A stretch of DNA of 64,000 nt from Prorocentrum cordatum. Its lineage: Eukaryota. Positions 14,686-61,870 of this stretch are shown here, one piece after another; position 1 is the first letter of the stretch; each line of letters starts with the position of its first letter. The position numbers were made by a program, and so were the translations under genes. The DNA lies in contig CAUYUJ010000170.1 of assembly GCA_963575745.1 (NCBI GenBank), positions 1-64,000 of the forward strand, read 5' to 3'. Below the pieces are notes generated by a model that was given only the letters and a program-made list of their open reading frames with translations, was not told where the DNA came from and searched no databases.

Positions 14686-15948
14686 TCATACCACGACAGC
14701 GGCAACAAGGTCTGGCAAAGCTTTCGAAATGGCCGGCACAATTGCATGATCCGACAAGTACTTGTAGCCTTCGGGAGGACAATGAGGTTTGCAACGCTCG
14801 CAGAGTTTGCCACATTCTTGCATGGTTTTGTGCAAATCGACAACGGTGACATTCCTTTCCGCCATGATCGTGGTCGCAATCTCGTTGAGCTCGAGGACTC
14901 GTTTCTCAGATGGGCTTAGAGCACCAGGCACCGAGCGGCTACCGCCAGGCATGGTCGTCAAGAAATAAAGTACAGTGGCTGGTTGCCTTCGCTGCAGTAA
15001 GGGTACCTTGGCAGCGGCCAGAATCGTGTCTGCAATTTCGCTCAACCCGTTCTGATACGTGATATTGTCGTCTGCGCCATCGTGAAGACCAAAGTTGAAA
15101 GTGATGACATCCCATGCTGGCAAGACATGGCGTGGAGTACGGAGGAAATACTTTGTGCATAGTTGCCCGTATTGAACGCCGTCCGCGTTTCCTCCGCCAG
15201 CGTTATCAGGACCATGCTGCACATTTGCCTTGCCGACCAGAGAAGCCCGCACGTTCATGATGTACCCAGCACTAACGCTGTCTCCAATGATCAAAACATT
15301 TGGCATAGCAGAGCTGATTGTAGATGGTCCTGGCCCACAGCAGCACCCGCCTGAAACTTTACCGACACCTGCACAACCAGGGTAAGATGTTGAGTTCGGA
15401 GGGGCGCAACCATACCCACCAGGCACCTTGTAGGCATCAGGGCTCTTTCCGATGCAGCACGTATCTCCTTCTGGACATTGTGTGCAACCGGACGCACCGC
15501 ATTTCTGCAAAGGTGGTCCTAAAGAAGAAGTGCCCGTGTTGGTCGCATGACGCGATGGACATGCGGCTATCCCGAGCACATGAATCCGATTATTGCTCCC
15601 ACAACGTTCGGTTGCATCACCAGTACATGGTTCTGCACGTGTGCACTGTGGATTCTTATCCTGGGGGATCGTGTAAGGACCAAAGCCGTGGTCGCAATAG
15701 CAATTGCCTCCGTTCTCCAAGCCAGCAAGAGATCCAGCTCCGAACCCAGCTAAGCAACACAAATATATGCAACGCTCTTGACTCATATTATTATCATTGG
15801 AAGCAGCGAGATACTTTAAAACACGTCGTTCTCCATCTGGCGTTTGGTACGGGTCGACGAAGCAGCCAATCGCCGAGGGCGATACACACTGATTGCTACA
15901 ATCGGTAACATGTGGCCACGTTGCAGCTAACATGGAGAGCGCACGCAT
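14686..15948 (-). CDS. Intronless WSC-domain + SGNH/GDSL hydrolase (retrogene)
   Basis: WSC pattern GCFVD..MSQERCIYLC..AGLENGGNCYCD..PCTGDATERCG. SGNH block I LIIGDSV, block III WDVITFNFGLHD, block V PH..EGY. TGA at 14686-14688. Start MRALSML at 15948; alternative ATG at 15999. Confidence 0.85.
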   Translation of the reverse strand: MRALSMLAATWPHVTDCSNQCVSPSAIGCFVDPYQTPDGERRVLKYLAASNDNNMSQERCIYLCCLAGFGAGSLAGLENGGNCYCDHGFGPYTIPQDKNPQCTRAEPCTGDATERCGSNNRIHVLGIAACPSRHATNTGTSSLGPPLQKCGASGCTQCPEGDTCCIGKSPDAYKVPGGYGCAPPNSTSYPGCAGVGKVSGGCCCGPGPSTISSAMPNVLIIGDSVSAGYIMNVRASLVGKANVQHGPDNAGGGNADGVQYGQLCTKYFLRTPRHVLPAWDVITFNFGLHDGADDNITYQNGLSEIADTILAAAKVPLLQRRQPATVLYFLTTMPGGSRSVPGALSPSEKRVLELNEIATTIMAERNVTVVDLHKTMQECGKLCERCKPHCPPEGYKYLSDHAIVPAISKALPDLVAAVVV

Positions 15949-15975
15949 CTTCCAGGAAGATGTTCTCCAAGTGGC

Positions 15976-16000
15976 CTTGAGCCAACTGGTTTGAGTCATG
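15976..16000 (-). other. Relict SL remnants (ATGACTCAAA-CCAGTTGGCTCAAG)
   Basis: TTGGCTCAAG is an exact SL 3' end at 15976-15985, preceded by a degenerate second copy. Confidence 0.6.
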
Positions 16001-16094
16001 ATGATGTTCTCCGTCAGATTTCGCCCTTCTGCTAGGGTGCGGCCAAGAACCCTTGGTTTTCCGCAAAAGCTTCCTACGAGGCGTGCAACACTGT

Positions 16095-16116
16095 CTTGAG
16101 CCAAAATGGCTACGGA
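16095..16116 (-). other. Full 22-nt dinoflagellate spliced leader (TCCGTAGCCATTTTGGCTCAAG) integrated at the retrogene 5' end
   Basis: Exact reverse-complement match cttgagccaaaatggctacgga. Confidence 0.97.
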
Positions 16117-16954
16117 CCATGGTTTCAGCGCCCTTGGCCGCGGCAAGTTCCCCGACACCGCGTGAACCGCGCAGCCTTTGGGCGATCTTAGCGCTCGGAG
16201 TTTCCTAGGGATTCGGATCTATTGTCGGACGAATCTCGCGATGTGGAAAGCGTCTAGAAACATCGATGTGCATTGCTTTGGAAAGGCTGTCGGGAACATG
16301 GACATCGAGGTTCCCGGAAGGCACTCTAGGAACATGGTCTAGGACGTGGACGCGATGGCTTCGAGAGGCTCTGGACCCTCGGGTCGGCTAAACGCAAGAG
16401 GATCCCGGGCAAGGGTGGCCTCCAGTGTGCGGCTTCAGTGGGCTCCCCCAGCCCCACCAAAGCGGCACGCGTGCTCGAATCTGGCCCGCCTGCGCCCGCC
16501 TGAAGCCGCGCACCAGAGGTCACTCCAGCGAAGGATCACTCTTACGCGTGCGGTCGATCGATCAGGGGCGTCTTAGGGCTACTCGACGGCGTCTCGGGGG
16601 CTAGGGGGCCTCGTGAGGGCTGGCTGGCGGTCTCGGGCTTTTTCGAACCTCTGTTGAGGCTCTCCAGGTGGCTTCTTGGGCGTTTTGGGCGGCCTCCTGG
16701 ACCGTCTTCGGGCCCTCTTGGGCGTTCTGGGGGTCCTCTGGAGGGACTCGTGAGCTGCTTTCGAGCGATGTCGAAGGCCTCTTAGGCCGTCTGCGGCCAT
16801 CGGGCATCGGCCAAACCGCGTGTCGTCGAAAGGCTCTCGGGGCTTCCTCGACGCCATTGTTGCTGCCCTTGGTCCACTTTCTGGACTGGTGACCTGTCTG
16901 TGGGGCTCTCCTCCTCCTTCTCCTCCTCCTCCTCCTCCTCCTGTCTCCCTACCT

Positions 16955-29679: not shown

Positions 29680-31010
29680 AACGCATCGGCAAGTGTCACT
29701 GGCGCGTCCCTTTCAGCTCCACATGCGGCTACGAAGCGCGCGCGGGGTGCGCCACAATGCGTGTGTGTGTGTGTGTGGTCTGTGTGTGTTGGTGTGTGTG
29801 TGTGTGCGTGCGTGCGCGTGTCTGTGTGTGTGTGTTGGTGTGTGTGGTGTGTATAAGTGTGGTGCTGGTGGTGGTGGGTGGTGGTGGTGGTGGTGGTGGC
29901 GATGGTGGTGGTGGTGGTGGTGGTATGTGCGTGTGTGTGCGCGTGTGTGTGCGTGCGTGTGTGTGTGTGTGTGTGTTGATGCTGGTGGTCGCGGTGGGTG
30001 GGCGGGCGGAGTGAATGGGAGGGTGTGGGGGGAGGGGGCGGGAAGGGGGGGGGGCATGCTAACGTCGTCACTTGGGCCTTAGATGGGGCTCCTCATGGGC
30101 CACGAGCCGTCTGAGGGGCGCGTCGTAACGGGCGACGCGGGCGCGCGTAAACGTCGCCGTCGGGGCTTCAAGCGAGGCCCCCCGTGGGGCCACGGGACGC
30201 GTTAGCGGTGCGCCGTGATGCGTGGCGCGGGCGCACGCAGAGGTCGCCAGTGGAGCTATAGGCGGAGCTCCCTACGCGGCCACGAACCGCGTGAGCGGTG
30301 TGCCCTTCTTGGGGGCGCGGGCGCGTGCATACGTCGGCGCTGGGGCCTTACGTGGGCCTCCCTATGGGGCCGCGGACCGTGCGAAGTGTGCGCCGTAATG
30401 AATGGCGCGGGCGCATGTGCACGTCGCCATTGGGGCCTTCGGCGGCGCTCGCTTTGGGGCCATGAACACTGTGACAGGCGCGCCGTCATGGGCGGCGCAA
30501 GCGCATGCAAACATCGCCGGTGGTGCCGTACAGGGAGCTCGCTGCGTGGCCACGAACGGCGCGCGGGTGCGCTGTCATGGGCTGCGCGGGCGCATGTAAA
30601 CGCCGCCGCTGAGGCCTTCGGTGGAGCACCCTATGGAGCGTTGGCGCATGTAACATCGCCACTGCGGTCTTGGGTGGAGCTCCCCATGACGGCACGAAAC
30701 GTTTGAGGGGCGCGCCGTTGCGGGCGGCGCGGACGCATGTGGACGTCGCCACTGGGTGGATTTGGCGGAGCCCCCCATGGGGCTGCGGACCGCGCGAGGG
30801 GCGCGTCGCCATGGGTGGCGCCGACGTATGTCAACGTCGCCGCGGGGGCTTTACGTGGGGATCCGTACGGGGCCATGAAGCGCGTGATGGGTGCGCCGTA
30901 ATGGGCGGCGCGGACGCATGCAGACGTCGCCACTGGGAACTCGCATGCAATTCCCTACGCGGCCACGAAGCGCGTGGAGGGGTGCGCCGACATTGACGCA
31001 CGGAGCGCAG
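29680..31010 (+). repeat. (GT)n/(GGT)n tract followed by degenerate ~90-bp tandem repeat (ggggccacgaaccgcg..aatgggcggcgcggacgcatg)
   Basis: Same family recurs at 45280-46260. Confidence 0.8.
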
Positions 31011-31909
31011 GACAGGGGCGGGATGATTGGGGGGAGGGGGAGGGCGGGAAGTAAGGTGACGCGTGGCGCCGTCGCTTCAGACCGAGGGCCCCGACGCAGA
31101 ATTGCTTTGGGAACTGATGCAGTGGGGGTTGCAGAGGGCATGGCAGAAGTGCACAAACCTGTTGGAACAAGGGACGGGGTTGGGCAGACGCACTGCGGCC
31201 CTGGGCTCGCGCGATCGCGACGTAGGCCTTGTGGGCCGACAAGCAACCCGACGCTTCCCAGGCAGCGGGGCAACGCTGTGGGATGCTGCGCCGCGGCGCG
31301 TCAACGATGTCTTCCAGCATGGCAATTGCAATCAGAGCCCGTCGGCGAAGAATGGCGAAAGTAGAGCGGGAGGAGCGTCCGATCGGAATATGGATTGCAT
31401 TGGCAGGGCAAAACCAAACTAGAACCCCCCCCGCCTCCTTCCCCCTCCCGCATGTGCCCCCCCCCCCTTCCCGTTCGCAACGCCCCGCCCGCCGCTGCCC
31501 CGCTCCCCCCCGGCGGCCCACCGCCGCTTTCCCGCGCGCTGCCAAGCCCGCGCGCCATCAGGCCCTGTCGGCCGCAAGCCAAGCTCAACCATCTCCCTTA
31601 TCGCCCCCTGCCGCTCGCCCACGGCGCCCGCCGGTATCCGCGGCGCGCCTTGCAATCGCTCGCTGCCCGCCTCTGCGCTTCCACGTCGGGCATGCTCGGG
31701 GTCGGCCATCGGGCGGCGTCACCGCCCCGAAAGGCCCCGCGCCCTCGACCAATCACCCCGGCGCAACATGCGCAACCGCTTGCCCGCCGCAGCCGCCCGC
31801 TCGCCCGCCTGGGAGGGGGGGGGGCACGGGGTGCCAAGGCGCACACGCCTGATGTGCCGCCAAGGTTCGCACCGAAATATAATACGGAAAGGCCCGCTCC
31901 GCAATCGGC

Positions 31910-32236
31910 GGAGGGGAGGGGGGGGGGAAGTAGGGGGGGGAAACGATCGCGAAGGGGCGGGGGGGGGGAGGGGGGCGTCGTTAAATCGAAAAGCCGGGGG
32001 GGGGGGGGGGGGGAATCTGAAGGACGGGGGCGGGAAAGGGGGGGGCTCTGCAAAAACTGGAAGGACGGGAAAGGGGGGGGGGAAAGGGGGGCGGGCGGGG
32101 GGGGGCTTTTTGCAAAAATAAGAAGGACGGCGAGGGGGGGGCGATGGGGGGGGGGATTTTGCACATATTGGAGACGGCGGGGATTTCGCAAAAATCTACA
32201 GGACGGGGGCGAGCGGGGACTTTGCGCAAATCGGAC
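31910..32236. repeat. G-run-rich ~31-bp repeat (gggggctttgcaaaaatcggaaggacg), resuming at 37498-37800
   Basis: The same repeat flanks both sides of the 32239-37495 insertion. Confidence 0.8.
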
Positions 32237-32497
32237 TACAGGCAGAGTCCATTGCACAGGACACGCGACAGGACACAAGACTCTTCCGACGGCAACATGA
32301 CCTCCCAGAACCACAGGACACAAGGGCACCCTCTCGGGGCCGCGACCGCGGTCACCCGCGGCCGACCCGCGCCCCCGCGACGGGGGGCCAACGTCGGACA
32401 GGACACCAAGGGTGTCCGACAGGCCGCGCCGCCCACCGCGCAGAAAAGTAAATCATGATGCGCCGCGCGCGCCCACCTCCCTCTGGGGGCGGTCACG

Positions 32498-32940
32498 CGA
32501 CCTGTCGCCATGGCAGAAGACCAGAGAACATGGGCGCGGACGCGGACGGCGCAAACGAGAGGACGCGCAGACCACCCTCCCGCGGGAGAGCGACCTGTCG
32601 CAATGGCAGAAGACCAGAGAACATGGGCGCGGACGCGGACGGCGCAAACGAGAGGACGCGCAGACCACCCTCCCGCGGGAAAGCGACCTCTCGCCATGGC
32701 AGAAGACCAGAGAACATGGGCGCGGACGCGGACGGCGCAAACGAGAGGACGCGCAGACCACCCTCCCGCGGGAGAGCGACCTGCCTCCATGGCAGGAGAC
32801 CAGAGAACATGGGCGCGGACGCGGACGGCGCAAACGAGAGGACGCGCAGACCACCATTCCGCGGGAGAGCGACCTGTCGCCATGGCAGAAGACCAGAGAG
32901 AATTGGCGCGGACGCGGACGGAACAAACGAGAGGACGCGC
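32498..32940 (+). repeat. 93-bp tandem repeat x5 in element copy 1
   Basis: cgacct starts at 32498, 32591, 32684, 32777 and 32870. Confidence 0.95.
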
Positions 32941-35900
32941 GTGGGGACTTCTGTATTGCTCACAATAGAAAAGTCGACATTTCCGTCGGCCTCCTTAAAG
33001 GCCCACAGAAATTTCAAATTCAGTTTTTGCAATTACATGGCAGTTTCTTTATTGTGGACAATACAGAACTCCTCACGCGCGCGCGCGTGGGGACTTCTGT
33101 ATTGTTCGCAATAGCAAAGTCGACATTTCCGTCGGCCTCTTTAAAGGGCCACAGAAATTTCAATCTTAGTTTTTCGAATTACATGGCGGCTTTTCTATTG
33201 TGGACAATACCGAACTCCTCGCGCGCGCGCGTGGGGACTTCTATATTGTTCACAATAGAAAAGTTGACATTTCCGCCGGCCTCCTTGATGGCCCACAGAA
33301 GTTTCAAATTCAGTTTCTGGAATTACATGGCGGCTTCTCTATTGTGGACAATACAGAACTCCTCACGCGCGCGCGCGTGCGGGGACTTCTGCATTGTTCG
33401 CAGTAGAAAAGTCGGCATTTCCGTCGGCCTCCTTACCCACAGAAATTTCAAATTCAGTTTTTGCAATTACATGGTGGCTTCTTTATTGTGGACAATACAG
33501 AACTCCTCACGCGCGCGCGCGCGCTCGCACGCGCGCGCGGACGCGCGCGCGTCCGCGCGCGCAGGCGCGTGCGGACTTTCTGTATTGTCCACAATAGAAA
33601 AATCGACAGTTCCGTCGGCCTCCCTAAAGGGCCACAGCAATTTAAAATTCAGTTTTTGGAATTACATGGCGGCTTTTCTATTGTGGACAATACAGAACTC
33701 CTCACGCGCGCGCGCTGACGCGCGCGCGCTGACGGGGGAATTCTGTATGGTTGACAATAGAAAAGTCGAGATTGTCGTCTGCCTCCTTAAGGCGCCACAG
33801 AAATTTCAAATTCAGTTTTTGGAATAAAATGGCGGCTTCTCTATTGTGCACAATACAGAATTCCTCACGCGCGCGCGCGGACGCGCGCGCGTCCGCGCGC
33901 GCGCGCGTGGGGACTTCTGTATTGTCCACAATAGAAATGTCGACATTTCCGTCGGCCTCCTTACAAGCCCACAGAAATTTCAAATTCAGTTTTTACAATT
34001 ACAAAATGGTTTCTCTGTTGTGGGCAATACAGAACTCCTCACGCGCCCGCGCGCGCGGGGACTTCTGTATTGTCCACAATAGAAAAGACGACATTTCCGT
34101 CGGCCTTCTCAAAAGGCAACAGAAACTTCAAATTCAGTTTTTCGAATTACATGGCGGCTTTTCTATTGTTAACAGTACAGAACTCCTCACACGCGCGCGC
34201 GCGTGGGGACTTCTGTATTGTCCAGAATAGAAAAGTCCACGTTTCCGTCGGCCTCCTTAACGGGCCACAGAAATTTCAAATTCAGCTTCTTTTTGGAATT
34301 ACAAGTTTGCTTTTCTATTGTGGACAATACAGAACTCCACGCGCGCGCGTGCGCGTGGACGCGCGCGCGTCCGCGCGCGCGCGTGGGGACTTCTGCATTG
34401 TCCGCAATACAAAAATCGACATGTCCGTCGGCCTCATCAAAGAGCCACAGAAATTTCAAATTCAGATGTTGGAAATACATGGCGGCTTTTCTACTAGGGA
34501 CTATACAGAACTCCTCACGCGCGCGCGCGCATGGGGAGTGCTGTATTGTTCACAATCGAAAAATCTACATTTTCAAATTCAGTTTTTGGAATTACATGGC
34601 GGCTTCTCTATTGTGGACAATACAGAAGTCCTCACGCGCGCGCGGGGACTTCTGTATGGTTCACAAAAGAAAAGTCGACATGTCCGACGACCTCCTTAAA
34701 GGGCCACAGAACTTTCAATTTCAGTTTTTGGAAATACATGGCGGCTTTCCTACTGTGGACAATACAGAACTCCTCACGCGCGCGCGCGGACTTCTGTATT
34801 ATTCACAATAGAAAAGTCGGCATTTCCGTCGGCCCCCTTAAAGGCCCACAGAAAATTCTCAAATTCAATGTTTGGAATTACATGGCGGCTTCTCTATTGT
34901 GGACAATACAGAACTCCTCACGCGCGCGCGGTGACTTCCGCATGGTTCACAATAGAAAAGTCGGCATGTCCGTCGGCCTCCTTAAATGGCCACAGAAATC
35001 TCAAATTCAGTTTTTGGAATTACATGGCGGCTTTTCTATTGTGTACAATACAGAACTCCTCACGCGCGCGCGCGTGGGGACTTCTGTATTGTCCACAATA
35101 GAAAAATCGACATTTCCGTCGGCCTCCTTAAAGGCCCACAGGAATTTCAAATTCAGTTTTTGGAATTACATGGCGGCTTCTCTATTGTTGACGATACAGA
35201 ACTCCTCACGCGCGCGCGCGCGCTGACGCGCGCGCTGACGCGCGCGCGCGCGTGGGGACTTCTGTAGTGTTCAGAATAGAGAAGTCGAAATTTTCGTTGG
35301 CATCTTGAAAAGACCACAGAAATTTCACATTCAGTTTTTGGAATTAAGTGGCGGCTTTTCTATTGTGCACAATACAGAACTCCTCACGCGCGCGCGCGCG
35401 CGTGGGGACTTCTGTACTGTCCACAATAGAAAAATCGACATTTCCGTTGGCCTCCTTAAAGGGCCACGGAAATTTCAAATACAGTTTTTGGAATTACAAG
35501 TTTGCTTTTCTATTGTGGACAATACAGAAGAACTCCTCACGCTCGCGCGCGCGGACGCGCGCGCGTCCGCCCGCGCCCGCGCGCGCGGGGACTTCTGCAT
35601 TGTCCACAATAGAAAAGTCGACATTTCCGTCGGCCTCCTTAGAGGGCCACAAAAATTTCACATTCAGTGTTTGGAATTGCATGGCGGCTTTTCTGTTGGA
35701 CAATACAGAACTCCTCACGCGCGCGCGCACGCGCGCGCGTTGGGACTTCTGTAGTGTCCACAATAAAGAAATCGACATTTCCGTCGGCCTCCTTAACGGG
35801 CAACAGAAATTTCAAATTCAGTTTTTGGAATTACATGGCTGCTTTTCTATTGTGGACAATACAGAGCTTCTCACGCGCGCGCGCGTGCGGACTTTCTGTA

Positions 35901-36885
35901 TTGTTCACAAAAGAAAAGTCGACATTTCCGTCGGCCTCCTTGCAGGGCCACACAAATTTCAAATTCAGCGTTTGGAATTGCATGGCGGCTTTTCCATTGG
36001 ACAATACAGAACTCCTCACGCGCGCGCGCGCGGACGCGCGCGCGTCCGCGCGCGCTTGCGCTTGGGGACTTCGGTATTATTCACAATTGAGAAGTCTACA
36101 TTCCCGTCGGCCTCCTTAAAAGCCCCAAGAAATTTCAAATTCAGTTTTGGAAATGACATGGCGGCTTTTCTATTGCGGACAATACAGAACTCCTCACGCG
36201 CGCGCGCGCGGACGCGCGCGCGTCCGCGCGCGCGCGCGTGGGGGCGCATGCATTGTTCACAATAGAAAAGTCGGCATTTCCGTCGGCCCCCTTAAGGGCC
36301 ACAGAAATTTCAAGTTCAGTTTTTGGATTTACATGGCGGCTTTTTTATTGCCGACAATGCAGAACTCCTCACGCGCGCGCGCGCGCGTGGGGATTGCTGT
36401 ATTGTCCACAAAAGAAAAATCTACATTTCCGTCGGCCTCATTAGAAGGGCCACAGAAATTTCAAATTCAGTTTTTGGAATTACATGGCGGCTTTTCTATT
36501 GTTGACAATACAGAACTCCTCACGCGCGCGCGCGCGTGGGGACCTCTGTATTGTCTACAATAGACAAGTCGACATTTCCCTCGGCCTCCTTAAAGGGCCA
36601 CAGAAAATTCAAACTCAGTTTTTTGGAATTACATGGCGGCTTTTCTATTGTGGACAATACAAAACTCCTCACGCGCGCGCGCGCGGACGCGCGCGCGTCC
36701 GCACGCGCCCGCGCGCGTGGGGACTTCTGTATTGTCCACCATGGAAAGTCGGCGCGTCCGTCGGCCTTCTTAAAGGGCCACAGAAATTTCAAATTCAGTT
36801 TTTGGAATTACATGGCAGCTTTTCTGTTGTGGACCATACAGAACTCCTCGCGCGCGCGCCAGCGCGCGTCCGCGCGCGCGCGCGC
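32941..36885. repeat. ~25 palindromic ~145-bp units with (CG)n linkers, array 1
   Basis: gtggggacttctgtattgtccacaatagaaaagtcg ... cggcttttctattgtggacaatacagaactcctcac (36-bp inverted arms). Confidence 0.95.
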
Positions 36886-37849
36886 TCTAGTTTGCAAGCC
36901 AACACGGCGTCTTTTCTATTCGGAACAATACAGAGCGCTCTATGAGGCTCAGGCTGAGCGCCCGCGTGACTCCGCCAAAAGCGCGCCTCCACTGCTGTTC
37001 CCAGGAGCCCGCCGAAGTGAAGCCAATGCGCAGGACGGCAGGGTGCCCTTTGCGCGCCCCGCGACCTGCCCGAACGCGACGATGAACGAACTTGCAGGGC
37101 TGGGCAAGTACCGGACACAGGAGTACCCTGCTGCGCGGGGGCGACCTCGAGAGAACGCGTCGTTGGTTCACTGGCGGCGCGGCCGCGCTCAGAGGACATC
37201 GCAGAGCATGCCCTTCGCCGCGGCGCCGGCGGCGCGGCGCTAAAACCACAATCTTACATCGAAGCGAACCGAACCCCCAGATGTGCCAGGACACAAGGGT
37301 ACCCGTGACCAGGGCCGCGACCTCCCCGAGGCGCGACGCGCCCAGAACGCCGCGGGCCAAGCCGCCGACGCCCGCGGAAAGCACAGGACACAAGGGTTCC
37401 CTTGCCCGGGGAATGCAGAGGACACGAAGCGCGATGCACAGGACACGAGAGCACCCTTGATTTGGCAGGCCCGACCTGCTAATGGACTCCGACGGCACGG
37501 GGGGGGGGACTTTGCAAAGATCGGGAGTCACAAATCGGAATAAGGGGGTGGGGGGGCTTTGCAGAAATCGGAAGGACGGGGGAGGAGGGGCTTTGCAAAA
37601 ATCGGAAGGACGGGGGGGAAGGGGGGTGGGGGGCTTTTGCAAAAATCAGAAGGACGGGGGCGGGGGGCGAGGGGGACCTTGCACAAATCGGCATGGGGAG
37701 GTGGGGTGAGGACTTTCGCAGAAATCGGGAGGACGGGGGAAGGGGGGTGGCCTTTGCGAACAAAACAAAAGGAGGGGGTGCTTTGCAAAATATTGGGCGC
37801 GTTCGAATCGCAATTCGTAGAAACAGCTTGCTAGACGACTTGCTTGTTT

Positions 37850-38830
37850 GCTTGGCGTAGCAGAATTTTGCTAGAAATTTGCTTAAATTTTGCTTCGCGT
37901 AGCAAAATTTTGCTAGAAATTTGCTTAAATTTTGCTTCGCGTAGCAAAATTTTGCTAGAAATTTGCTTAAATGTTGCTTGGCGCTGCCACCCCCGTCCCC
38001 CCGCGCAACTAAGATGCGACCGCCATCGCTGTGAACGAGTAAGATGTGGAAGGGGCGAAGCAAAATTTTGCTAGAAATTTGCTTAAATTTTGCTTCGCGT
38101 AGCAAAATTTTGCTAGAAATTTGCTTAAAATTTGCTTGGCGCTGCCACACTTCCCCCCCCCCCAAGTGAAACGCAAAGTGTTGCGACGCCCCTTCCACTA
38201 CGTTTTCCGTGCGCAGTGATGGCGGTAGTGGTCATATAGGACCACGACCGCAGTCGATGTGAGCGGGTAAGATGTGGAAGGCGCGAAACAGAATTTTGCT
38301 AGAAATTTGCTTAAATTTTGCTTCGCGTAGCAAAATTTTGCTAGAAATTTGCTTAAATTTTGCTTCGCGTAGCAAAATTTTGCTAGAAATTTGCTTAAAA
38401 TTTGCTTTGCGCTGCCCAAGTAATATCCAAGCATTTGTTGTTGCTACGCCCCTTCCACTAGCTATCCGTTCGCATCGATGGCGGTAGTGGCCACATAAGA
38501 CCACGACCGCCATCGATGCTTGGCGCAGCCGACCAAGCAAAATGTGCTTCGAAGTTTGCTTAGTGGGCCGCGCCAAGCAAAATTCAAGCAAAATTTTGCT
38601 TGCCAAGCAAAATTCAAGCAAAATTTTGCTTGCCAAGCAAAATTCAAGCAAAATTTTGCTTGCCAAGCAAAATTCAAGCAAAATTGTGCTTGCAAAGTAA
38701 AATTCAAGCAAATTTTCAAAATTCTACTATCGGAAAGCATTTTTTCAGAAAAATGCTTCCCCAAGTAAAATTCAAGCAAAATTAAAGCAAAATTCAAGCA
38801 AATTTAAGCAAAATTTTGCTTGAATTCGTT
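37850..38830. repeat. AT-rich 42-bp and 30-bp palindromic tandem repeats (gcaaaattttgc core)
   Basis: 42-bp period (37901, 37943); 30-bp unit gccaagcaaaattcaagcaaaattttgctt at ~38572-38700. Confidence 0.92.
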
Positions 38831-40202
38831 CCGTCGTACGCCGTCGTGCACCGTCGTGCGCCGTCGTGCGCCGTCGCGCGCGGTCGCGCGGCGTCGAGGC
38901 GCGCCATGCGCTGCGGCGCGCTTCGTCGTCATCTGGCGGCGCTGATGGCTGCGGCGGCGCATGCGGCGCGGGCGCCCGACCAGCCCCCCCCCCCCCCCTC
39001 CCCCCTCGCCAACCGCTGGCGGGATGCACGCGGCAGGCGCGCGGCCCGAGGTGCTCGGGCGACGTAGGTGGACAGAACGCTCATGACGACGCCCCTGCGA
39101 TACTCTCCGCCGCGACGCACCTTGCTCGCTCGCATCTTCGATTGAGGAACGCCGCCCCCCCTGCGAAACTTTGGCGGGCGGGCCCAGCGCCCCAGCCGCA
39201 GCGCAACGCTCGCGCAGCCGCGATGCGCTGCCCTGTGCCACCGAGCGCTCCACTGTCGCATTCTCGGGTGGACGCCACCTGTCGGCGCACGGGCGACCTA
39301 ACCCCCCCGCCCCCCCCCCCCCCCTCGAAGACATGGGCAAATGCGCCAAAAACGCATTCGGACACGGCGCCCCTCGTTGCCGGTGGCCGAGTGCCGCTTA
39401 ACGCTGAACGCCACCAGCGGCCCCGACGGACAGAGCCTCCCCCCTCTTTTTCCCCCGCCACGAGTAGGATACCGCCGCAAGTGCCAGGCGGCGCGGCCGC
39501 GGAATGCCTGGGCACACGGGGCGCCCCGTTCTGCGGGCGCGCGCGCGATGCCCCAACATGGGCCAGGGCGTGCGCGAAGAGGCCAAGGGCTGCCCTCCCA
39601 GAGGGTGGCCCAACACTGGAGATCGCACGCGCACGGCCAGGATGGCAGAGGCGCGTGCTCGAGGGCACCCGTGGGATCGCAAAACGTGGGCGAGTGGAAC
39701 TCAGATACCTGCACCTCATACTGCATGCGCCCACAGATCATCCCACGTTGGCACGGCGCGCTATCTCGTGACCTATGACTCCCCATCCTTTGCCCCCGAC
39801 TCTGCCTTGCTCTGCCGTACTCAATTCTCCTCCTGCCCGCCCATATTAGACGGGCGGGGGACGGGTTGGGGGAGGGGCGGAGGGGGGGGGGGGCGGGAGA
39901 GGGGGAGGGGAAGAGGAAAGGCGCGGGGCTGGAGTTTGACGTACAGGCAGAGTCCATTGCCCAGGACACGCGACAGGACACAATACTCTTCCGGCGGCAA
40001 CATGACCTCCCAGAACCACAGGACACAAGGGTACCCTCTCGGGGCCGCGACCGCGGTCACCCGCGGCCGACCCGCGCCCCCGCGACGGGGGGCCAACGTC
40101 GGACAGGGCACCAGGGGTGTCCGACAGGCCGCGCCGCCCACCGCGCAGAAAAGTAAATCATGATGCGCCGCAAGCGCCCACCTCCCTCTGGGGGCGGTCG
40201 CG

Positions 40203-40642
40203 CGACCTGTCGCCATGGCAGAAGACCAGAACATGGGCGCGGACGCGGACGGCGCAAACGAGAGGACGCGCAGACCACCCTCTCGCGGGAGAGCGACCTG
40301 TCGCCATGGCAGAAGACCAGAGAACATGGGCGCGGACGCGGACGGCGCAAACGAGAGGACGCGCAGACCACCCTCCCGCGGGAGAGCGACCTGTCGCCAT
40401 GGCAGAAGACCAGAGAACATGGGCGCGGACGCGGACGGCGCAAACGAGAGGACGCGCAGACCACCCTTCCGCGGGAGAGCGACCTGTCTCCATGGCAGGA
40501 GACCAGAGAACATGGGCGCGGACGCGGACGGCGCAAACGAGAGGACGCGCAGACCACCCTCCGCGGGAGAGCGACCTGTCGCCATGGCAGAAGACCAGAG
40601 AACATGGGCGCGGACGCGGACGGCGCAAACGAGAGGACGCGC
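40203..40642 (+). repeat. 91-93-bp tandem repeat x5 in element copy 2
   Basis: Same unit as 32498-32940. Confidence 0.95.
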
Positions 40643-43600
40643 GTGGGGACTTCTGTATTGTTCACGATAGAAAAGTCGACATTTCCGTCGGCCTCTTTAA
40701 AGGCCCACAGAAATTTCAAATTCAGTTTTTGGAATTACATGGCGGCTTCTCTATTGTGGACAATACAGAACTCCTCACGCGCGCGCGCGCGCGCGCGTGG
40801 GGACTTTGTATTGTTCACAATAGACAAGTCGACATTTCCGTCGGCCTCCTTAAAGGGCCACAGAAATTTCAAATTCAGTTTTTGGAATTACATGGCGGCT
40901 TTTCTATTGTGGACAATACAGAACTCACGCGCGCGCGCGTGGGGACTTCTGTATTATTCACAATAGAAAAGTCGGCATTTCCGTCGGCCCCTTTCAAGAC
41001 CCACAGAAATTTCAAATTCAGTTTTTGGAATTACAGGGCGGCTTTTCTATTGTGGACAATACAGAACTCCTCACGCGCGCGCGCGAACGGACGCGCGCGC
41101 GTCCGCGCGCGCGGCGACTTATGTATGGTTCACAATAGAAAAAGTCGACATGCCCGTCGGCCTCCTTAAATTTCAAATTCAGCTTTTGGAATTACATGAA
41201 GGTTTTTTGTATTTGGGACAATACAGAACTCCTCACGCGCGCGCGCGCGGACGCGCGCGCGCGCGGGGATTTCTGTATTGCCCACAATAAAAAAGTCTGC
41301 GTTTCCGTCGGCCTCCTTAAAGGGCCCACAGAAATTTCAAACTCAGTTTTTGGAATTACATGGCGGCTTTTCCATTGTGGACAATACAGAACTCCTCACG
41401 CGCGCGCGCGCGCTGACGCGCGCGCTGACGCGCGCGCGTGGGGACTCTGTATGGTTCACAATAGAGAAGTGGACGTTTTCGTCTGCCTCCTTAAGGGGCA
41501 ACAGAAATTTCAAATTCGGTTTTTAAAATTAAATGGCGGCTTCTCTATCGTGCACAAAAAGGAACTCCTCACGCGCGCGCGCGCGTCCGGCGACTTCTGA
41601 ATTGTCCACAATAGACAAGTCGGCATTTCCATCGGCCTCCTTAAAGGGCCACAGAAATTTCGAATCCAGTTTTTGGAATTACATGGCAACTTTTCTATTG
41701 TGGACAATACAGAACTCCTCACGCGCGCGCGCGCGGACGCGCGCGCGTCCGCGCGCGCCCGCGCGCGGGGGACTTCTGTATTGTCCACAATAGACAAGTC
41801 GACATTTCCGTCGGCCTCCTCAAAGGGCCACAAAAATTTCAAATTCAGTTTTTGGAATTACATGGCTGCTTTTCTATTGTGGACAATACAGAACTTCTCG
41901 CGCGCGCGCGCGTGGGGACTTCTGTATCGTCCACAATAAAATAGTAGACATGTCCGTCGGCCTCCTTAACGGGCCACAGAAATTTCAAATTGAGTTTTTG
42001 GAATTACATGGCGGCTTTTCTATTGTTGACAATACAGAACTCCTCACGCGCGCGCGCGTGGGGACTTCTGTATTGTCCACACTAGAAAAGTCGACATTTC
42101 CGTCGGCCTCCTTAAAGGGCCACAGAAATTTCAAATTCAGCTTTTGGGTTACATGGCGGCTTTTCTATTGTGGACAATACAGAACTCCTCACGCGCGCGC
42201 GCGCGTGGGGCCTTTTGTATTGTCCACAATGGAAAAGTCTATATTTTCGTCGGCCCCCTTAAGGGCCACAGAAATTTCCAACCCAGTTTTTGGAATTACA
42301 TGGCGGCTTCTCTATTGTGGACAATACAGAACTCCTCACGCGCGCGCGCGCGGGGACTTCTGTATGATTCACAATCGAAAAGTCGAGATTTCCGTCGGCC
42401 GCCTTAAAGGGCCACAGAAATTTCAAATTCAGTTTTTGGAATGACATTGCGGCTTTTCTATTGTGGACAATACAGAACTCCTCACGCGCGCGCGCGCGCG
42501 GACGCGCGCGCGTACGCGAACGCGCGGGCGCGCGTGGGGACTTCTGTACTATCTATTCACAATAGAAAAGTCGACATTTCCGCCGGCCTCCTTAACGGGC
42601 CACAGAAATTTCAAATTCAGTTTTTGGAATTACATGGCGGCTTTTCTATTGTGGACAATACAGAACTCCTCACGCGCGCGCGCGGACGCGCGCGCGCGGG
42701 GACTTCTGTATGGTTCACAACACAAAAGTCGACATTTCCGTTGACCTCCTTAAATGGCCACAGAAATTTCAAATTCAGTTTTTGGAATTACATGGCGGCT
42801 TTTTTATTGTGGACAATACAGAAATCCTCGCGCGCGGACGCGCGCGCGGACGCGCGCGCGCGCGTGGGGACTTCTGTATTGGTTCACAATAGAAAAGTAG
42901 ACATTTCCGTCGGCCTCTTTAAAGGGCCACAGAAATTTCAAGTTCAGTTTTTGGAATTACATGGCAACTTTTTTATTCTGGACAATACAGAACTCCTCAC
43001 GCGCGCGCGCGCGCTGACGCGCGCGCTGACGCGCGCGCGCGCGCGCGTGGGGACGTCTGTATTGTTCACAATAAAAGAGTCGACATTTCCGTCGGCCTCC
43101 TTAAAGGGCCACAGAAATTTCAAATTCAGTTTTTGGAATTAAGTGGCGGCTTTTCTATTGTGCACAATACAGCACTCCTCACGCGCGCGTGTGGGCATTT
43201 CTGTATTGTCCACAATAGAAAAGTCAGCTTTTCCGCCGGCCTCCTTAAAGGGCCACAGAAATTTCAAATTCAGTTTTTGGAATTACAAAGTGGCTTTTCT
43301 ATTGTGGACAATACAGAACTCCTCACGCGCGCGCGCGCGACGCGCGCGCGTCCGCGCGCGCCCGCGCGCGCGGGGACTTCTGTAGTGTCCACAATAGACA
43401 AGTCGACATTTCCGTCGGCGACCTTCAGGGCCACAGAAATTTCAAATTCAGTTTTTGGAATTACATGGCGACTTCTCTATTGTGGACAATACACAACTCC
43501 TCGCGCGCGCGCGCGCGGACTGGCGCGCGTCCGCGCACGCGCGCGCGTGGGGACTTCTGTATTGTCCACACTAGAAAAGTCGACATTTCCGTCGGCCTCC

Positions 43601-44605
43601 TTAACGGGCCACAGAAATTTCAAAATCAGTTTTTGGAATTACATGGCGGCTTTTCTGTTGTGGACAACACAGAACTCCTCACGCGCGCGCGCGTGCGGAC
43701 TTCTGTATTGTTCACAACAGAACAATCGACATTTCCGTCGGCCTCCTTAACTGGCCACAAAAATTTCAAAATCAGCTTTTGGAATTACATGGCGGCTTCC
43801 CTATTGTGGACAATACAGAACTCCTCACGCGCGCGCGTGGGGACTTCGGTACTGTTCACAATAGAAAAGTCGACATTTCCGCCGGCCTGCTTAAAGGGCC
43901 ACAGAAATTTCAAATTCAGTTTTTGGAATTACATGGCGGCTTTTCTAATGTGGACAATACAGAACTCCTCACGCGCGCGCGCGCGCGGACGCGCGCGCAT
44001 CGGGACTTCTGTATTGTTCACAATAGAAAAGTTGGCATTTCCGTCGGCCTCCTTAAAAGGCAACGGAAATTCCAAATTCAGCTTTTGGAATTTCAGGGCG
44101 GCTTCTCTATTGTGCAGAAGACAGAACTCCTCACGCGCGCCCGCGCGTGTGGGGACTTCTGTATTGTCCACAATAGAAAATTCGGCATTCCCGTCGGCCT
44201 CAAAGGGCCACAGAAATTTCAAATTCAGTTTTTGAAATTACATGGCGGCTTTTCTATTGTGGACAATACAGAACTCCTCACGCGCGCACGCGCGCGCGTG
44301 GGGACTTCTGTATTGTCCACAATAGAAAAGTCTACATTTCCGTCGGCCTCCTTAAAGGGCAACAGAAATTTCAAATTCAGCTTTTGGACTTACATGGCGG
44401 CTTTTCTATTGTGGACAATACAGAACTCCTCACGCGCGCGCGCGTGGTGACTTCTGTATTGTCCACAATGGAAAGTCGGTGCGTCCGTCGGCCTCCTTAA
44501 AGGGCCACAGAAATTTCAAATTCAGTTTTTGGAATTACATGGTAGCTTTTCTGTTGTGGACCATCCAGAACTCCTCACGCGCGCGCCAGCGCGCGTCCGC
44601 GCGCT
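40643..44605. repeat. ~25 palindromic ~145-bp units with (CG)n linkers, array 2
   Basis: Same unit as 32941-36885. Confidence 0.95.
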
Positions 44606-45279
44606 CTAGCTTGCAAGCCAACACGGCGTCTTCTCTATTCGGAACAATACAGAGCGCTCTATGAGACTTAGGCTGAGCGCCCGCGTGACTCCGCCAAAAG
44701 CGCGCCTCCGCTGCTGTTCCCAGGAGCCCGCCGAAGAGAAGCCAATGCACAGGACGGCAGGGTATCCTTTGCGCGCCCCGCGACCTGCCCGAACGCGACG
44801 ATGAATGAACTTGCAGGGCTGGGCAAGTACAGGACACAGGAGTACCCTGCTGCGCGGGGGCGACCTCGAGTGAACGCGTCGTTGGTTCACTGGCGGTGCG
44901 GCCGCACTCAGAGGACATCGCAGAGTATACCCTTCGCCGCGGCGCCGGCGGCGCGGCGCTGAAACCGCAATCTTACATCGAAGCGAACCGAACCCCCAAA
45001 TCTGAGAGGACACAAGGGTACCCTTGACCAGGGCCGCGACCTCCCCGAGGCGCGACGCGCCCAGAACGCCGCGGGCCAAGCCGCCGACACCCGCGGAAAG
45101 CACAGGACACAAGGGCACCCTTGCCCGGGGAATGCAGAGGACACGAAGCGCGATGCACAGGACACGAGAGTACCCTTGATTTGGCAGGCCCGACCTACTA
45201 ATGGACTCCGACTGTATCTTGGGCATGAGCTCGATCGTGTGCAATGGCGAGGACCGCGATTGTGGACACGCAAATGCGC

Positions 45280-46260
45280 GTGTCACTGGGGCGTTCGGTG
45301 GGGCTCCCTATGGGGCCACGAACCGTGCGATAGATGCGCCGTGATGTGTGTGGTGCGTGGTGCGTGTGTCTGTGGTGCCGGTCGTGTGTGTGTGTGTGTC
45401 GTGTTTGTGTGGTGGTGGTTGACGGTTGGTGGTGGCGGTGGTGGTGTGTGTCGGGGGGGGGGGGGCGTGCGTGGGGGTGGCGGTGGTCGTGGTGGGTTGG
45501 TGGTGGCGGGGGTGGAGCTGGGCGGGGGTCTCTGGGTGGGTGGGCGGGCCATGGGCGGCGCAAGCGCCATGGGCGGCGCAACCGCACGTGCACGTGCCGT
45601 CATAGGCGGCCAAACGCAGTACACGTCGCTTGGAGCTCCATATGGGCCCGCGAATGGCGCGAGCAAAGGTCGCCATTTGGACTTTATGTGGAGCTCCTCA
45701 TGTGGCCACGGGCCGCGTGATGGGGCGTGCCGTAATGGGCGGCACGGACGCTTGTGCGACGCCGCCTCAAGTCGAAACCCCCATGCAGCCACGGACCGTG
45801 CGAGGGGTGCGCCGCAATGGGTTGCGCGCGCGCGTGCGAACTTCGCCACTGGGGCCTTGGGTGGAACTCTTTCTGAGGCGACGGGCCGCGCGATTGAGAG
45901 CGTCGCAATGGTTGGGCAGCCTTTCGTTGAGATCCTTCTGGGGCCACGAACCGCGCGAGGGCGCGCCGCGATGGGTGGCCCAGGAGCGCGCGACCGTCGC
46001 CACGGGTGCTTTAAGTGGAGCACCATGTGGGGCCGCGAACCGCGCGATGGGGCGCGCCGTAATCGGTGGCGCGGACGCATGTCCACGTCGCCACAGGGGG
46101 CTCAGATGGAGCCCCCTATGGGGCCACGGTCCGTGCGAGGGTGCGGCATGATGCGCGGCGCGGACGCATGTAAGCGTCTCTACTGGGGCCTTGGGTGCAA
46201 TTCCATAAGTGGCCATGAACCATGGGAAGGGCGCAGCGTTGTGGCGCGGATGCGGCGCAC
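45280..46260 (+). repeat. Degenerate ~90-bp tandem repeat, second array
   Basis: Same family as 29680-31010. Confidence 0.8.
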
Positions 46261-47459: not shown

Positions 47460-47850
47460 CACGTGCCACGGCGGAAGCCCCATGGAGAAAACCAACTGTG
47501 CATTTTTGACTGGGCGCCAACATGAACCAAGGAAACCTCAGAAAGGCAACTCGTGACACGTGTCACCGAGGAAACCGCTAGAGGAAAGCCAACGGTGCAT
47601 TTTTGATTCTGGACGCCGCCATGATCCAAAGAAGCCTCAGAAAAGCAACGGGCGATACGTGTCACCGCGGAAACCGCTTGGAGAAAACCAAACGTAATCG
47701 TTTGATTCTCGGCGCCAACATGAGCCTGGGAATCTTCAGAAGAAAAGCAGGTGACGCGTGTCACCACGGAAACCGCTTGAGGAAAACCAATGGTACATTT
47801 TTGAATCTGGACGCCATCATGGGCCAAGGGCGCCTCAGAAGAGCAGCGGG
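47460..47850. repeat. ~100-bp tandem repeat x4 (gtgtcaccgcggaaaccgcttg.gaaaaccaa..catttttga)
   Basis: Four degenerate units. Confidence 0.85.
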
Positions 47851-49674
47851 CGACAAGCCCCCGCGGGGGAGGAGGGGGGAGGCAAAGAAGGGGGCGTGGG
47901 GAACATGAAGATATACCGTTGCCGGGTCAAAACTGACACAAGATCGGGGAGAAGGCGACAACCCAAAAATCTGCAAGGATGCCCAAGGGGCCGTGCAACG
48001 CCATTACGCGGCAAGAAACGCGCGGGGATGCGCCCGCCCAAACGAGAACATGGGCAAGGATACGGAAGGATCCCCAAGGGTACCCTTGCCTCCCCCATCC
48101 CTGCGACGCCGCCGTGCAACGGGCTTCAACCCCAAACGGCAAGGATGAATGTGCCGCCAAGGGTACCCTTGGACGGCCGAAGCAGCAGCCAAGGATGCCG
48201 GGAAAGGATGATGGCTTGACGTCTTATGGCTTGGGGCGCCTTAACCGCGTTAGTGGGCCAAATTTCCTGGTGGCACCACCTTTGATTGCACGGTGGGCGA
48301 CCGCGTCCGTCGCGGTCGCGTTTCATGTTGTCTGCGGGCGGGTCCCGCCACTTGCAATTCAGAACCTGCGGCGCAGATTCCGTGACATTGCGGGTGGGTA
48401 GGATTCGTCCACCCTTGAGTCGCCTTTCACAGTTCTTGTCCTGCTCCACGACCCGCGCACCAGTGGTGGCGATGCATGCGGCCTGTAGCTGGGAGCGCGG
48501 CGAGGGCCGACAACGCAAAACAGAAGCCGACCCCGAACTGGCTACGCATGCTGGGCGTGTGTATCATTATCGCAGTGTCGCACGGGTCGAACATTGGAAT
48601 GCCCCTGCACCCGTCCACTCAGCCTACCCCCCTATGACCCGCGCAATTACAAAAAATCAAGTAAAATTTTACTTGGCGTTTCAATTCTTGGGTAAATCAA
48701 TTTCGTAGTGATGCAGCGGTATAAAATGTGCACCCTACAATTAGGTGACTATCTTGCTACTGCACTTCCCTCGTCAGAATTCGATGCTGGAACCCACCCC
48801 GCGGGCTGCTGGAACCATTGCCCTTCGTGAAATTAAAGTGAGTGCTGGAATCCCCCCTCTTGTCGGCATAAGCTCCCGGAACCACTTTCCCTGGTAAAAA
48901 ATGAGGCGCTGGAGCCCTACCCCGCTGAGGGCCTGAAAAAATAACATAGGGCCAGGGAGGGGGGTGGTGGGACGGGGCCCAGGGGTGGGGGTCCTAGCAT
49001 TGTGGTCACGCCTCGCGTTCAAACGGGTGCAGTGCGTGCGCGTGCGCGCACGTGCATGCGCGTGTGCATGAGCGTGCGTGTGCGCGTGCGCGAGCCCGAG
49101 CCCGAGTGCGACCCCGAGCCCGAGCCCGAGCGCGAGCGCGAGCTAGAGACCCAGCCTGGGTCCGAGCCCATCCGGAGCGCGTGCGCGCGCGCGTGCGCGT
49201 GTGCGTGCGTGTGCGCGCGCGTGTGAGTGCGCGCGTGCGTGCGCGTGCGCTTCCGATGTGCTAACGGTCAGCACATCGGAAGCATGTAACCTTACCTACG
49301 CAGATCCAAGGCCTCGTTACCCCCAAACTCGCGGCCCGTGGAGGCCCCGCCCCTTCGTGGATACATCCGCGGACGGATGAGGGCTACCCCGGAAACCACC
49401 CAAATTCCATACCCTGCAGCTAAGAGGACGGTGGACTACTATGCTAACCTGCGATTAAGCATTCCACTGCCAACCGTAGTCGCCTTACTGGGGTACATCG
49501 TTTACCCAAGATCGTGGCCGCCCAGGCCAAACGTAGCCGGCACCAGGGCGAAAACGCGTTCCGTGAGCAAGGCGTGGGGACGTCTCGGGCCAGACGGCTG
49601 CCGGACCGTGCTGGACAAGGCGTCCTCGGGGTCCCCGTCCTCCCTGGTGTGACTCGAGCTCTGCGCCGGTTTCC

Positions 49675-50339: not shown

Positions 50340-51054
50340 TCATAGCGGTCGTCGATGCCGCCATAATCATCCTTATCATCACCACCATCCACCACCGCCA
50401 CCACCCATCATCATCAGCATCACCACCACCATCATCATCATAATAATCATCATCAGCATCATCGCCATCGTCATTCTCAACATCATCATCGTCATCGTCA
50501 TCCTCATCCTCGTCGTCATCATCAGCATCACCATCATCGGCATCATCGTCACCATCATTATCATCATCATCATCATCTCTACCATCGTCTTTATCGTCAT
50601 CACCATTATCATAACTAGCACCACCACATTTATCAACACCACCACTGCCACCATCACAATCACTGACGTAATCACACTTATCAACGACATCATCGTCATC
50701 ATCATATCATCATCGTCGTCACCATAACTGTCATCATTGTCATCATTGGCATCGTTGTCATCACCATCATCGCTATTATCGTCGTCATCACCGCCATCGT
50801 CAACACCATCGTGATCATCATCACCACAAGCATCACCATGCTGATCATCATCGTCATCATCATTGTCGTCATCATCATCATCATCATCAGCATCATCATT
50901 TTCATCCCTGTCATCATTGTCATCATCACCATCATCATCACCATCGGAACCATAATTACATTCATCCTCACAAACATCATCCTCGTCATCGTCTTCATCG
51001 TCACTACCGTCATCTCAACTACAACCAACCACCACAATTATCACCACCATTGTC

Positions 51055-61565: not shown

Positions 61566-61869
61566 TCAACGCTTGCCCATAGAGGCGTCACGGTTGGTCA
61601 TGTGGTACTGCCTGGCCGGGGGCAAGTTGGCGAACGTCTTCAGCTCCGACTTCTCCATGTACTTGGCGTACAGCGTCTTCACCTTGTCCGTCTGCCCGTC
61701 TGCGGCGGAATCCAGGAGGTCCTCGGAGATCTCGGTCTGCGCGGCGAAGTCCTTCGGCTGGTTGCGCCAGTACGTGTTGAGCATCTTGAACTTGTTCTCC
61801 TTGGCCAGGACCGCTTTCATGTCGCCAGCGTCGATGGCGCTCTGCAGCTTGATGATGGCGGGGGCGTAC
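61566..61869 (-). CDS. psb31: Psb31-like photosystem II extrinsic lumenal protein, exon 2
   Basis: YAPAIIKLQSAIDAGDMKAVLAKENKFKMLN..KVKTLYAKYM follows the diatom Psb31 pattern (YG.RI..L..AV.KGDF.AV..EKNAF.LFN..L..AY.EY) as recalled. AAG|G acceptor; TGA at 61566-61568. Confidence 0.75.
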
Positions 61870-61870
61870 C

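Follow-up and report, generated by a model that had tools for sequence, protein, structure and literature searches.

What kind of sequence places two 5.3-kb units of the same build, each filled with tandem repeats, 2.4 kb apart in the genome of a dinoflagellate? The question is raised by a locus of Prorocentrum cordatum that lies within positions 1 to 64,000 of the forward strand of contig CAUYUJ010000170.1 (assembly GCA_963575745.1); this whole stretch of 64,000 nucleotides is called the window here. Each unit is probably a non-autonomous cut-and-paste transposon that is mobilised in trans, most likely by a transposase of the Tc1/mariner/pogo (ITm) type acting at TA, and that carries two tandem arrays as cargo. 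The best explanation of the pair is that both copies are members of a multi-copy family in a Prorocentrum-like dinoflagellate.

Self-BLAST, repeat finding and Tandem Repeats Finder (TRF) show two heads and two tails only in the window, arranged as two copies, in the same orientation, of one composite unit. From left to right the locus reads:

32237..32238, plus strand: TA flank on the left of copy 1, read directly
32239-37495: copy 1, 5257 bp, with CAG at its start and CGG at its end
32239..32253, plus strand: 5' terminal inverted repeat (TIR) of copy 1, CAGGCAGAGTCCATT
32239..32496, plus strand: head of copy 1, 258 bp, with four CAGGACAC subterminal motifs in its first 170 nt (from the motif map and from identity to the copy-2 head)
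32497..32940, plus strand: copy 1 array of 93-bp repeats, 4.8 units (TRF, 94% matches)
32936..36879, plus strand: copy 1 array of hairpin monomers, units of about 146 bp, 24 full and one half
34571-34629: the half monomer of copy 1
36880..37495, plus strand: tail of copy 1, about 615 bp, with subterminal CAGGACAC / AAGGGTACCC motifs
37481..37495, minus strand: 3' TIR of copy 1, degenerate, with a CGG end in place of CTG
37496..37497, plus strand: CA where TA is expected, right flank of copy 1
37498..39941: spacer between the copies, 2444 bp, made up of a G-rich repeat, AT-rich arrays of 42-bp and 30-bp units, and unique GC-rich DNA
39942..39943, plus strand: TA flank on the left of copy 2
39944-45214: copy 2, 5271 bp, with CAG at its start and CTG at its end
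39944..39958, plus strand: 5' TIR of copy 2
39944..40201, plus strand: head of copy 2 (self-comparison, identity to the copy-1 head)
40202..40642, plus strand: copy 2 array of 93-bp repeats, 4.8 units (TRF, 97% matches)
40638..44598, plus strand: copy 2 array of 25 hairpin monomers
44599..45214, plus strand: tail of copy 2 (identity to the copy-1 tail; translated relatives in metagenome open reading frames, ORFs)
45200..45214, minus strand: 3' TIR of copy 2, reverse complement CAGTCGGAGTCCATT
45215..45216, plus strand: TA flank on the right of copy 2, bridged by contigs of the public runs X2, X3 and X4 and by the metagenome ORF P0008

The sequence-only reading from which this analysis started had described two colinear copies of 5257 and 5271 bp, each with a head, 93-bp repeats, about 25 hairpin units and a tail of about 600 bp. 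That description is correct, lengths included; colinearity holds for the number and order of the units, whereas sequence-level orthology of most interior monomers has been lost. Between the copies the heads are 96.5% identical (9 differences in 258 positions), the 93-bp arrays 97.3% (12 in 441) and the tails 95.4% (28 in 613). The hairpin monomers are joined by (CG)n-rich linkers of 16-68 nt in copy 1 and 17-58 nt in copy 2, and their period ranges from 142 to 195 bp because linker length varies (16-68 nt).

The ends of the unit are sharply defined, as homology between the copies breaks off at identical bases on either side. The 5' end, CAGGCAGAGTCCATT, and the 3' end of copy 2, which as its reverse complement reads CAGTCGGAGTCCATT, agree in 13 of their 15 positions, a match expected by chance with a probability of about 1e-6 at fixed ends and about 6e-5 when 7x7 offsets are allowed; the ends of copy 1 are complementary at 12 of 15. 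TA occupies three of the four flanks (chance about 1e-4, given that TA makes up 3.1% of the window dinucleotides), and stands on both sides of copy 2, whose flanking 8 nt have only TA in common. The short imperfect TIRs with CAG and CTG ends and the perfect TA flanks of copy 2, both proposed from the letters in the first place, are thus found in place. The symmetric arrangement TA-CAG...CTG-TA is the classical signature of Tc1/mariner; Tc1/mariner/pogo elements and their MITEs (miniature inverted-repeat transposable elements) insert at TA, have termini that start with CAG and short TIRs, and include non-autonomous derivatives that are mobilised in trans.

The surroundings of the two copies differ, another feature that had been pointed out at the outset. 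Both flanks of copy 1 are parts of one G-rich repeat family with the unit CTTTGCAAAAATCGGAAGGACGGGG, so that copy 1 interrupts, or in the earlier wording splits, a host repeat. Copy 2 lies at the margin of a second G-rich tract and has unrelated sequence on its right. Because the flanks are unrelated, the locus is not a case of element and spacer duplicated in tandem.

The same 3' end is also met behind flanks from other sources. The probe was a translated minus-strand frame of the tail, open by chance in GC-rich DNA, and its matches were then placed on the window by tblastn; it retrieved six ORFs, together with two cluster mates, the six lying on metagenome contigs 772-1012 nt long. P0008 aligns over its full length, including 10 nt of the copy-2 flank, and represents the same locus in another sample. 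In P0009 the alignment begins at residue 10, at window position 45217, behind nine unrelated residues (MSELPGSSN), and at the boundary an Ile codon lies over A plus the TA of copy 2 and is followed by Gln, which corresponds to CAG. P0013 is read in the neighbouring frame; here the alignment begins at residue 26, at position 45216, behind 25 unrelated residues, with a boundary Tyr that requires T-A-C/T and is followed by Ser-Arg (AGT CGG). The 3' end therefore stands behind four different flanks (copy 1, copy 2 together with P0008, P0009 and P0013), and since the three other than that of copy 1 fit TA-CAG, it is the copy-1 end that is favoured as mutated. For the 5' end there are two different flanks, those of copy 1 and copy 2. 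This recurrence of the element ends in unrelated flanks supports the putative mobility of the unit.

The metagenome ORFs bear on the interior as well. P0009 and P0016 run on from the tail into translated hairpin-monomer sequence, and P0019, one of four weak matches (P0018-P0021) that a full HMMER search with a frame of the head returned, holds diverged 93-bp repeats only; because of these, the arrays belong to the family and not just to the locus. The tail variants form at least two sequence groups. P0020 and P0021 were set aside as relatives of the head, their matches being low-complexity or doubtful.

Is the locus itself real? Contigs of four public runs (X1-X4) were compared with it over positions 31200-46200. 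The left junction of copy 1 is spanned by a 222-nt X1 contig (32076-32299) with 0 mismatches, and the right junction of copy 2 by contigs of X2 (44930-45313), X3 (44766-45322) and X4 (44969-45322); among the contigs listed none bridges either of the other two junctions or covers a whole copy. Heads and tails differ by 3-5% between the copies, and the interior by more than 10%. A collapsed or duplicated assembly would not give such copies, because their ends differ by 3-5%, and with independent short-read contigs over two of the four junctions an assembly artefact is unlikely.

Contig depth gives a further, rough indication. In X1 the summed contig depth of head and tail bins is 101-330, as against 11-20 for single contigs in the unique flanks, a weak hint of further copies, since summed depths are not copy numbers. 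Over the arrays the same measure is 77-948, similar to that of head and tail (101-330), and over a nearby 90-bp repeat it reaches 80,011, some 100-1000 times the array level, figures that serve as a rough guide only. Monomer k-mers do not occur in the window outside the two copies.

Searched with Pfam, the 307 ORFs that the window contains (stop to stop, 110 aa or longer) showed no transposase family; the only matches above the cut-offs were Psb31, outside the element, and ROKNT in the translated 93-bp repeats, the latter likely spurious. Differences between the two tails fall on the three codon positions in the proportion 13/8/7, which is no bias. The element is non-coding. A scan of the head for bacterial-type promoters and terminators, with models unsuited to the dinoflagellate host, gave nothing above shuffled sequence.

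With these results the interpretation given by the sequence-only reading is supported in part: the copies are unlikely to be artefactual (two junctions bridged by short-read contigs, ends 3-5% apart), the interior is non-coding, and the element, bounded by TIRs, is met in different contexts, homology in P0009 and P0013 starting at the TA-CAG end with residues, Ile and Tyr, compatible with TA. Its proposal that the transposon disperses a structured satellite holds in part. The monomers do adjoin the tail in P0009 and P0016, but wide dispersal is not borne out, array depth being about equal to head and tail depth.

Clusters of short motifs lie just inside the ends. Of the 14 CAGGACAC sites in the window, 13 fall in the opening 170 nt or the closing 390 nt of a copy; these 13 are plus-strand sites throughout, and the motif mostly has an AAGGGTACCCTT-like palindrome after it. 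With at most one mismatch, AAGGGTACCCTT itself has 7 sites against 0.06 expected, 5 of them inside the copies. These subterminal motifs are plausible candidate protein-binding sites. Outside the copies, two perfect AAGGGTACCCTT palindromes (48076-48087 and 48159-48170) each stand beside CAAGGATG-like motifs; the pair at 48076-48170 looks like the element's subterminal clusters and could mark where a related family ends. The region 47850-48450, with its two perfect AAGGGTACCCTT sites, has no partner in the window.

The hairpin arrays raise questions of their own. The fold of a single monomer (-39.8 kcal/mol, z = -8.9) consists of a stem of about 35 bp and a loop of roughly 64 nt. The right arm of one monomer, the linker and the left arm of the next make up palindromes 90-120 nt long (z = -7.5 and -8.1). 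For the 93-bp unit, folding is no better than for shuffled sequence (z = -0.75). Covariation was not seen in a 37-pair stem given by hand, in which 89.4% of cells are paired compared with 89.6% in shuffles and 5 cells are changed on both sides, and RNAalifold predicted no consensus pairs for the monomers. Rfam gave 0 matches at the gathering threshold over the window, and in copy 2 only sub-threshold matches to long-hairpin miRNA precursors, the best with 68.9 against 245 bits. The palindromy is inherited, and selection keeping it was not detected.

Monomers of the same ordinal in the two arrays average 87.9% identity, and 16 other diagonals give 85.1-86.4%. In 20,000 permutations the value of 87.9% was attained 0 times, also when the first and last units are omitted. 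Linkers of a rare TGAC type, two per copy, occur at ordinals 5 and 15 in both copies, a coincidence with a chance of 1 in 276. The order of the monomers is thus conserved between the copies, as both the peak in same-ordinal identity and the matching positions of the TGAC-type linkers indicate. Array windows along the diagonal are 83-94% identical, and the hairpin array is about three times more diverged between the copies than head, 93-bp array and tail (95-97%). Monomers share on average 84.2% identity inside copy 1, 86.4% inside copy 2 and 85.4% from one copy to the other, and 25 of the 49 monomers have their nearest neighbour in their own array; array-specific homogenisation is ruled out, within- and between-array identities being about equal. 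We infer that the excess divergence of the arrays comes either from short conversion tracts exchanged among the monomers of the two neighbouring arrays or from faster mutation of DNA that is palindromic and rich in CpG.

The following sequence of events would account for the locus. The transposase would be encoded elsewhere and would most likely be of the Tc1/mariner/pogo (ITm) type; it would recognise the 15-bp TIR (CAGKCRGAGTCCATT) and probably also the clustered subterminal ACAGGACAC...AAGGGTACCCTT motifs. It would excise the whole 5.3-kb unit and insert it at a TA, which would be duplicated; the TA duplication, like the role of the subterminal motifs, is deduced here from the arrangement of the ends. 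The interior, with its short 93-bp array and 25 palindromic monomers joined by (CG)n linkers, would be passive cargo, and as this cargo would move in one block, new loci would receive the same satellite array through transposition. Once inserted, the hairpin array would diverge about three times faster than the ends, with unit number and order kept, and the likely cause would be short-tract conversion, hypermutable CpG-rich and palindromic DNA, or both. It is reasonable to think that the pair may have arisen by local transposition, in view of its proximity, 2.4 kb in a genome of several Gb; a common preference for G-rich targets would be another way to bring two copies close together.

Several observations weigh against this account, or against parts of it. 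Membership in Tc1/mariner is suggested only by TA and the CAG...CTG ends, and neither a transposase family in the window nor an autonomous relative was found. The right end of copy 1 reads ...CCGACGG followed by CA, so that two substitutions within 4 nt are needed to relate it to CTG-TA; alternatively, at GGCACGGGG, the host repeat may start straight after CCGAC. TA could belong to the element rather than be a duplication, no empty site having been seen: among the 15 joints listed for the short-read contigs (there are 134 further joints) none skips either copy, which is neutral either way. The motifs run in the same direction at both ends, unlike the symmetric inverted repeat-direct repeat (IR-DR) layout, which is mirrored in some Tc1-like elements, and this speaks against a simple ITm assignment. 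The additional 3' junctions are known as translations of short contigs, possibly from other strains or species, in which Ile and Tyr fit TA and do not prove it. A further 5' junction was not found, as a word-indexed protein search with the head frame returned no match (proteins of 160-510 aa). P0018, which matches the head frame at 65-67% over about 50 aa, reaches the end of the element, where the TIR is poorly aligned and the residue is Glu, while a TA at this place would be read as Tyr or a stop. In viral, metagenome and prokaryote contigs 0 loci came up when the head terminus and the best-conserved monomer 22-mer were used as exact patterns.

Some of these points would suit a mobile TIR element of another or unknown superfamily, in which TA would be part of the ends (TACAG...CTGTA) or a preferred target and no 2-bp duplication would occur. 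The lack of an empty site among the listed joints and of a right-hand TA at copy 1 would then need no special explanation, nor would subterminal motifs that are direct rather than inverted, and groups with no target-site duplication, or with AT or 3-bp duplications, do exist, as the accessible part of PMC4482050 states. What makes this alternative unlikely, though not negligible, is that the symmetric TA-CAG...CTG-TA arrangement is the classical one for Tc1/mariner, and that the 8 nt flanking copy 2 have TA alone in common. The duplication made by hAT elements is 8 bp. In the same portion of PMC4482050 the direct duplications are given as AT for ISL2EU, TWA for PIF, CWG for NuwaI and 5-8 bp for hAT; AT, TWA and CWG do not fit, and hAT, PIF/Harbinger, ISL2EU and NuwaI do not agree with the locus, the copy-2 flanks having nothing but TA in common.

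Helitrons and Helentrons have 5'-TC and 3'-CTRR ends and a 3' subterminal hairpin, and insert with no duplication. A non-autonomous rolling-circle element of the Helitron2/Helentron kind, with short asymmetric inverted ends, comparable to Cg_HINE of the oyster and to pearl-type carriers, would agree with ends that are asymmetric past 15 bp and with unidirectional motifs; moreover, among the elements known to have a satellite-like array at the centre are derivatives of Helentrons as well as DTC84, a MITE related to pearl (accessible parts of PMC7492417 and PMC3879986). This origin is nonetheless very improbable, the ends being CAG...CTG rather than 5'-TC...CTRR-3', symmetric and with TA on both sides, and no GC-rich hairpin being visible by eye just inside the 3' end. 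Finally, the window holds only two copies, equally oriented and separated by 2.4 kb, and no long read over both was seen, which could be taken to mean that the unit is not mobile at all, a dispersed segmental duplication or an assembly artefact having acquired TIR and TA by chance. Such an explanation is barely credible: it would have to meet chances of about 6e-5 for the TIR and about 1e-4 for the TA pattern, and it is opposed by the unrelated flanks, by a divergence between the copies of 3-5% in their ends and over 10% in the interior, by independent contigs from four runs that bridge two junctions, and by two additional, unrelated flanks with the same 3' end. The favoured explanation is a non-autonomous transposon of the cut-and-paste kind that is mobilised in trans.

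Within such a transposon the monomers may have a history of their own. At 31 of the 48 monomer junctions the sequence TA-CAG...(CG)n...CTG-TA occurs, with 32-85 nt between, and this matches the flank and end signature of the whole element. This could arise by coincidence inside a palindrome, or it could hint at a mini inverted-repeat element as the origin of the satellite unit. A bolder thought, to be regarded as a long shot, is that the satellite is built of transposon-end-like mini inverted-repeat units of 32-85 bp or, in a related reading, that the equal count of 25 units reflects a functional constraint. If the units were end-like, the same transposase might bind or cut them, driving turnover of the array or release of sub-elements; if 25 units were a constraint, the array might be a transcribed hairpin cluster that feeds small-RNA silencing of the family, or a cruciform- or Z-DNA-forming block with a role in the nucleosome-poor dinoflagellate chromosome.

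Other features of the locus concern its host sequence. The AT-rich arrays of the spacer, at 37847-38411 and 38572-38815, are built of 42-bp units (three blocks) and 30-bp units and contain GCAAAATTTTGC-like palindromes. Poly-C tracts at 38975-39005 and 39302-39325 cause many spurious joints in short-read contigs, skips of 294-300 nt that are not deletions, and the joints listed are poly-C/poly-G artefacts at 39003-39305 and 32015-38983. The runs that hold the spacer region are mostly marine metagenomes, and no RNA run is listed among them. At 30116-30981 and 45284-46231 lies a family of repeats of about 90 bp with a conserved 40-bp core, of which the window has 8 copies at no more than 10 mismatches. 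It is hyper-abundant, with a summed depth in bin 45228-45728 of 80,011 (X1), 83,461 (X2), 10,662 (X3) and 9,538 (X4), and is probably a major satellite or dispersed repeat of the genome. A photosystem II Psb31 domain (29.4 bits against a cut-off of 25) is encoded by a minus-strand ORF at 61569-61952, whose product is 88% identical to proteins named as Prorocentrum cordatum; it points to the host lineage. Sub-threshold Pfam matches on the same strand, to a GDSL-like lipase at 14689-16218 (30.3 bits, cut-off 32.9) and to the Gaa1 GPI transamidase at 50382-51014 (23.6 bits, cut-off 28.6), are possible exon fragments in a window dominated by repeats. The window has a G+C content of about 58%, in agreement with the 59.7% reported for the P. 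cordatum genome in the accessible part of PMC10666404. The host is thus a dinoflagellate that belongs to Prorocentrum or stands close to it.

How does the element compare with known systems? Beside ITm elements it stands out by its direct subterminal motifs, its large size and its satellite interior. The DTC84/pearl-type MITEs of bivalves, as described in the accessible part of PMC3879986, resemble it in being non-autonomous cassettes with short inverted repeats in the flanks and a central tandem array, with repeat variants in a fixed order and a palindrome at each unit junction. In the same account they are small, with at most five core repeats and a microsatellite, have a putative AA duplication and are high-copy. 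The Prorocentrum element, in contrast, measures 5.3 kb, has CAG...CTG ends between TA flanks and holds one array of 4.8 x 93 bp and another of 25 x about 146 bp; it lives in a dinoflagellate and, on a rough reading of summed contig depth, looks low-copy. The Tetris foldback transposon of Drosophila virilis is likewise an apparently non-autonomous DNA transposon whose internal tandem repeats are building blocks of satellites; its TIRs are long and contain the 220-bp repeats, which occur as independent satellite arrays of kilobase size as well (accessible part of PMC4079207), whereas the present element has a 15-bp TIR and central arrays, and contig depth gives no sign of large independent arrays. 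The non-autonomous Cg_HINE Helentrons of the Pacific oyster, to judge from the available section of PMC7492417, share the plan of flanking modules around one or two consecutive satellite-like central arrays, spread by transposition, but are rolling-circle elements, unlike an element with symmetric TA-CAG...CTG-TA ends.

Within dinoflagellates, P. cordatum included, introner elements are reported to be active, which the accessible parts of PMC10666404 and PMC11453091 present as non-autonomous DNA transposons with short inverted and direct terminal repeats. They are defined there by their location in introns and by splice signals; for the element considered here no gene context was found, nor ends that resemble splice sites. 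A limited literature search, including those parts of PMC10666404 and PMC11453091, found no description of a Tc1/mariner-type or satellite-carrying element in a dinoflagellate.

Current views of transposons or satellites are not overturned by the element. Transposon-borne satellite arrays, so far a matter mainly of bivalves and insects, extend with it to the huge and poorly annotated genomes of bloom-forming dinoflagellates, and its defined ends, the 15-bp TIR and the subterminal motifs, are usable as probes for the family and the transposase in a Prorocentrum assembly. The two copies also form a natural case for the study of array evolution, with the same order of 25 units and a palindromic array about three times more diverged than the unique ends. 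Satellite-carrying transposons as such were already established by DTC84, Tetris and Cg_HINE, and to these the element adds an example whose ends are Tc1/mariner-like, whose array is much larger and whose hosts are a new group.

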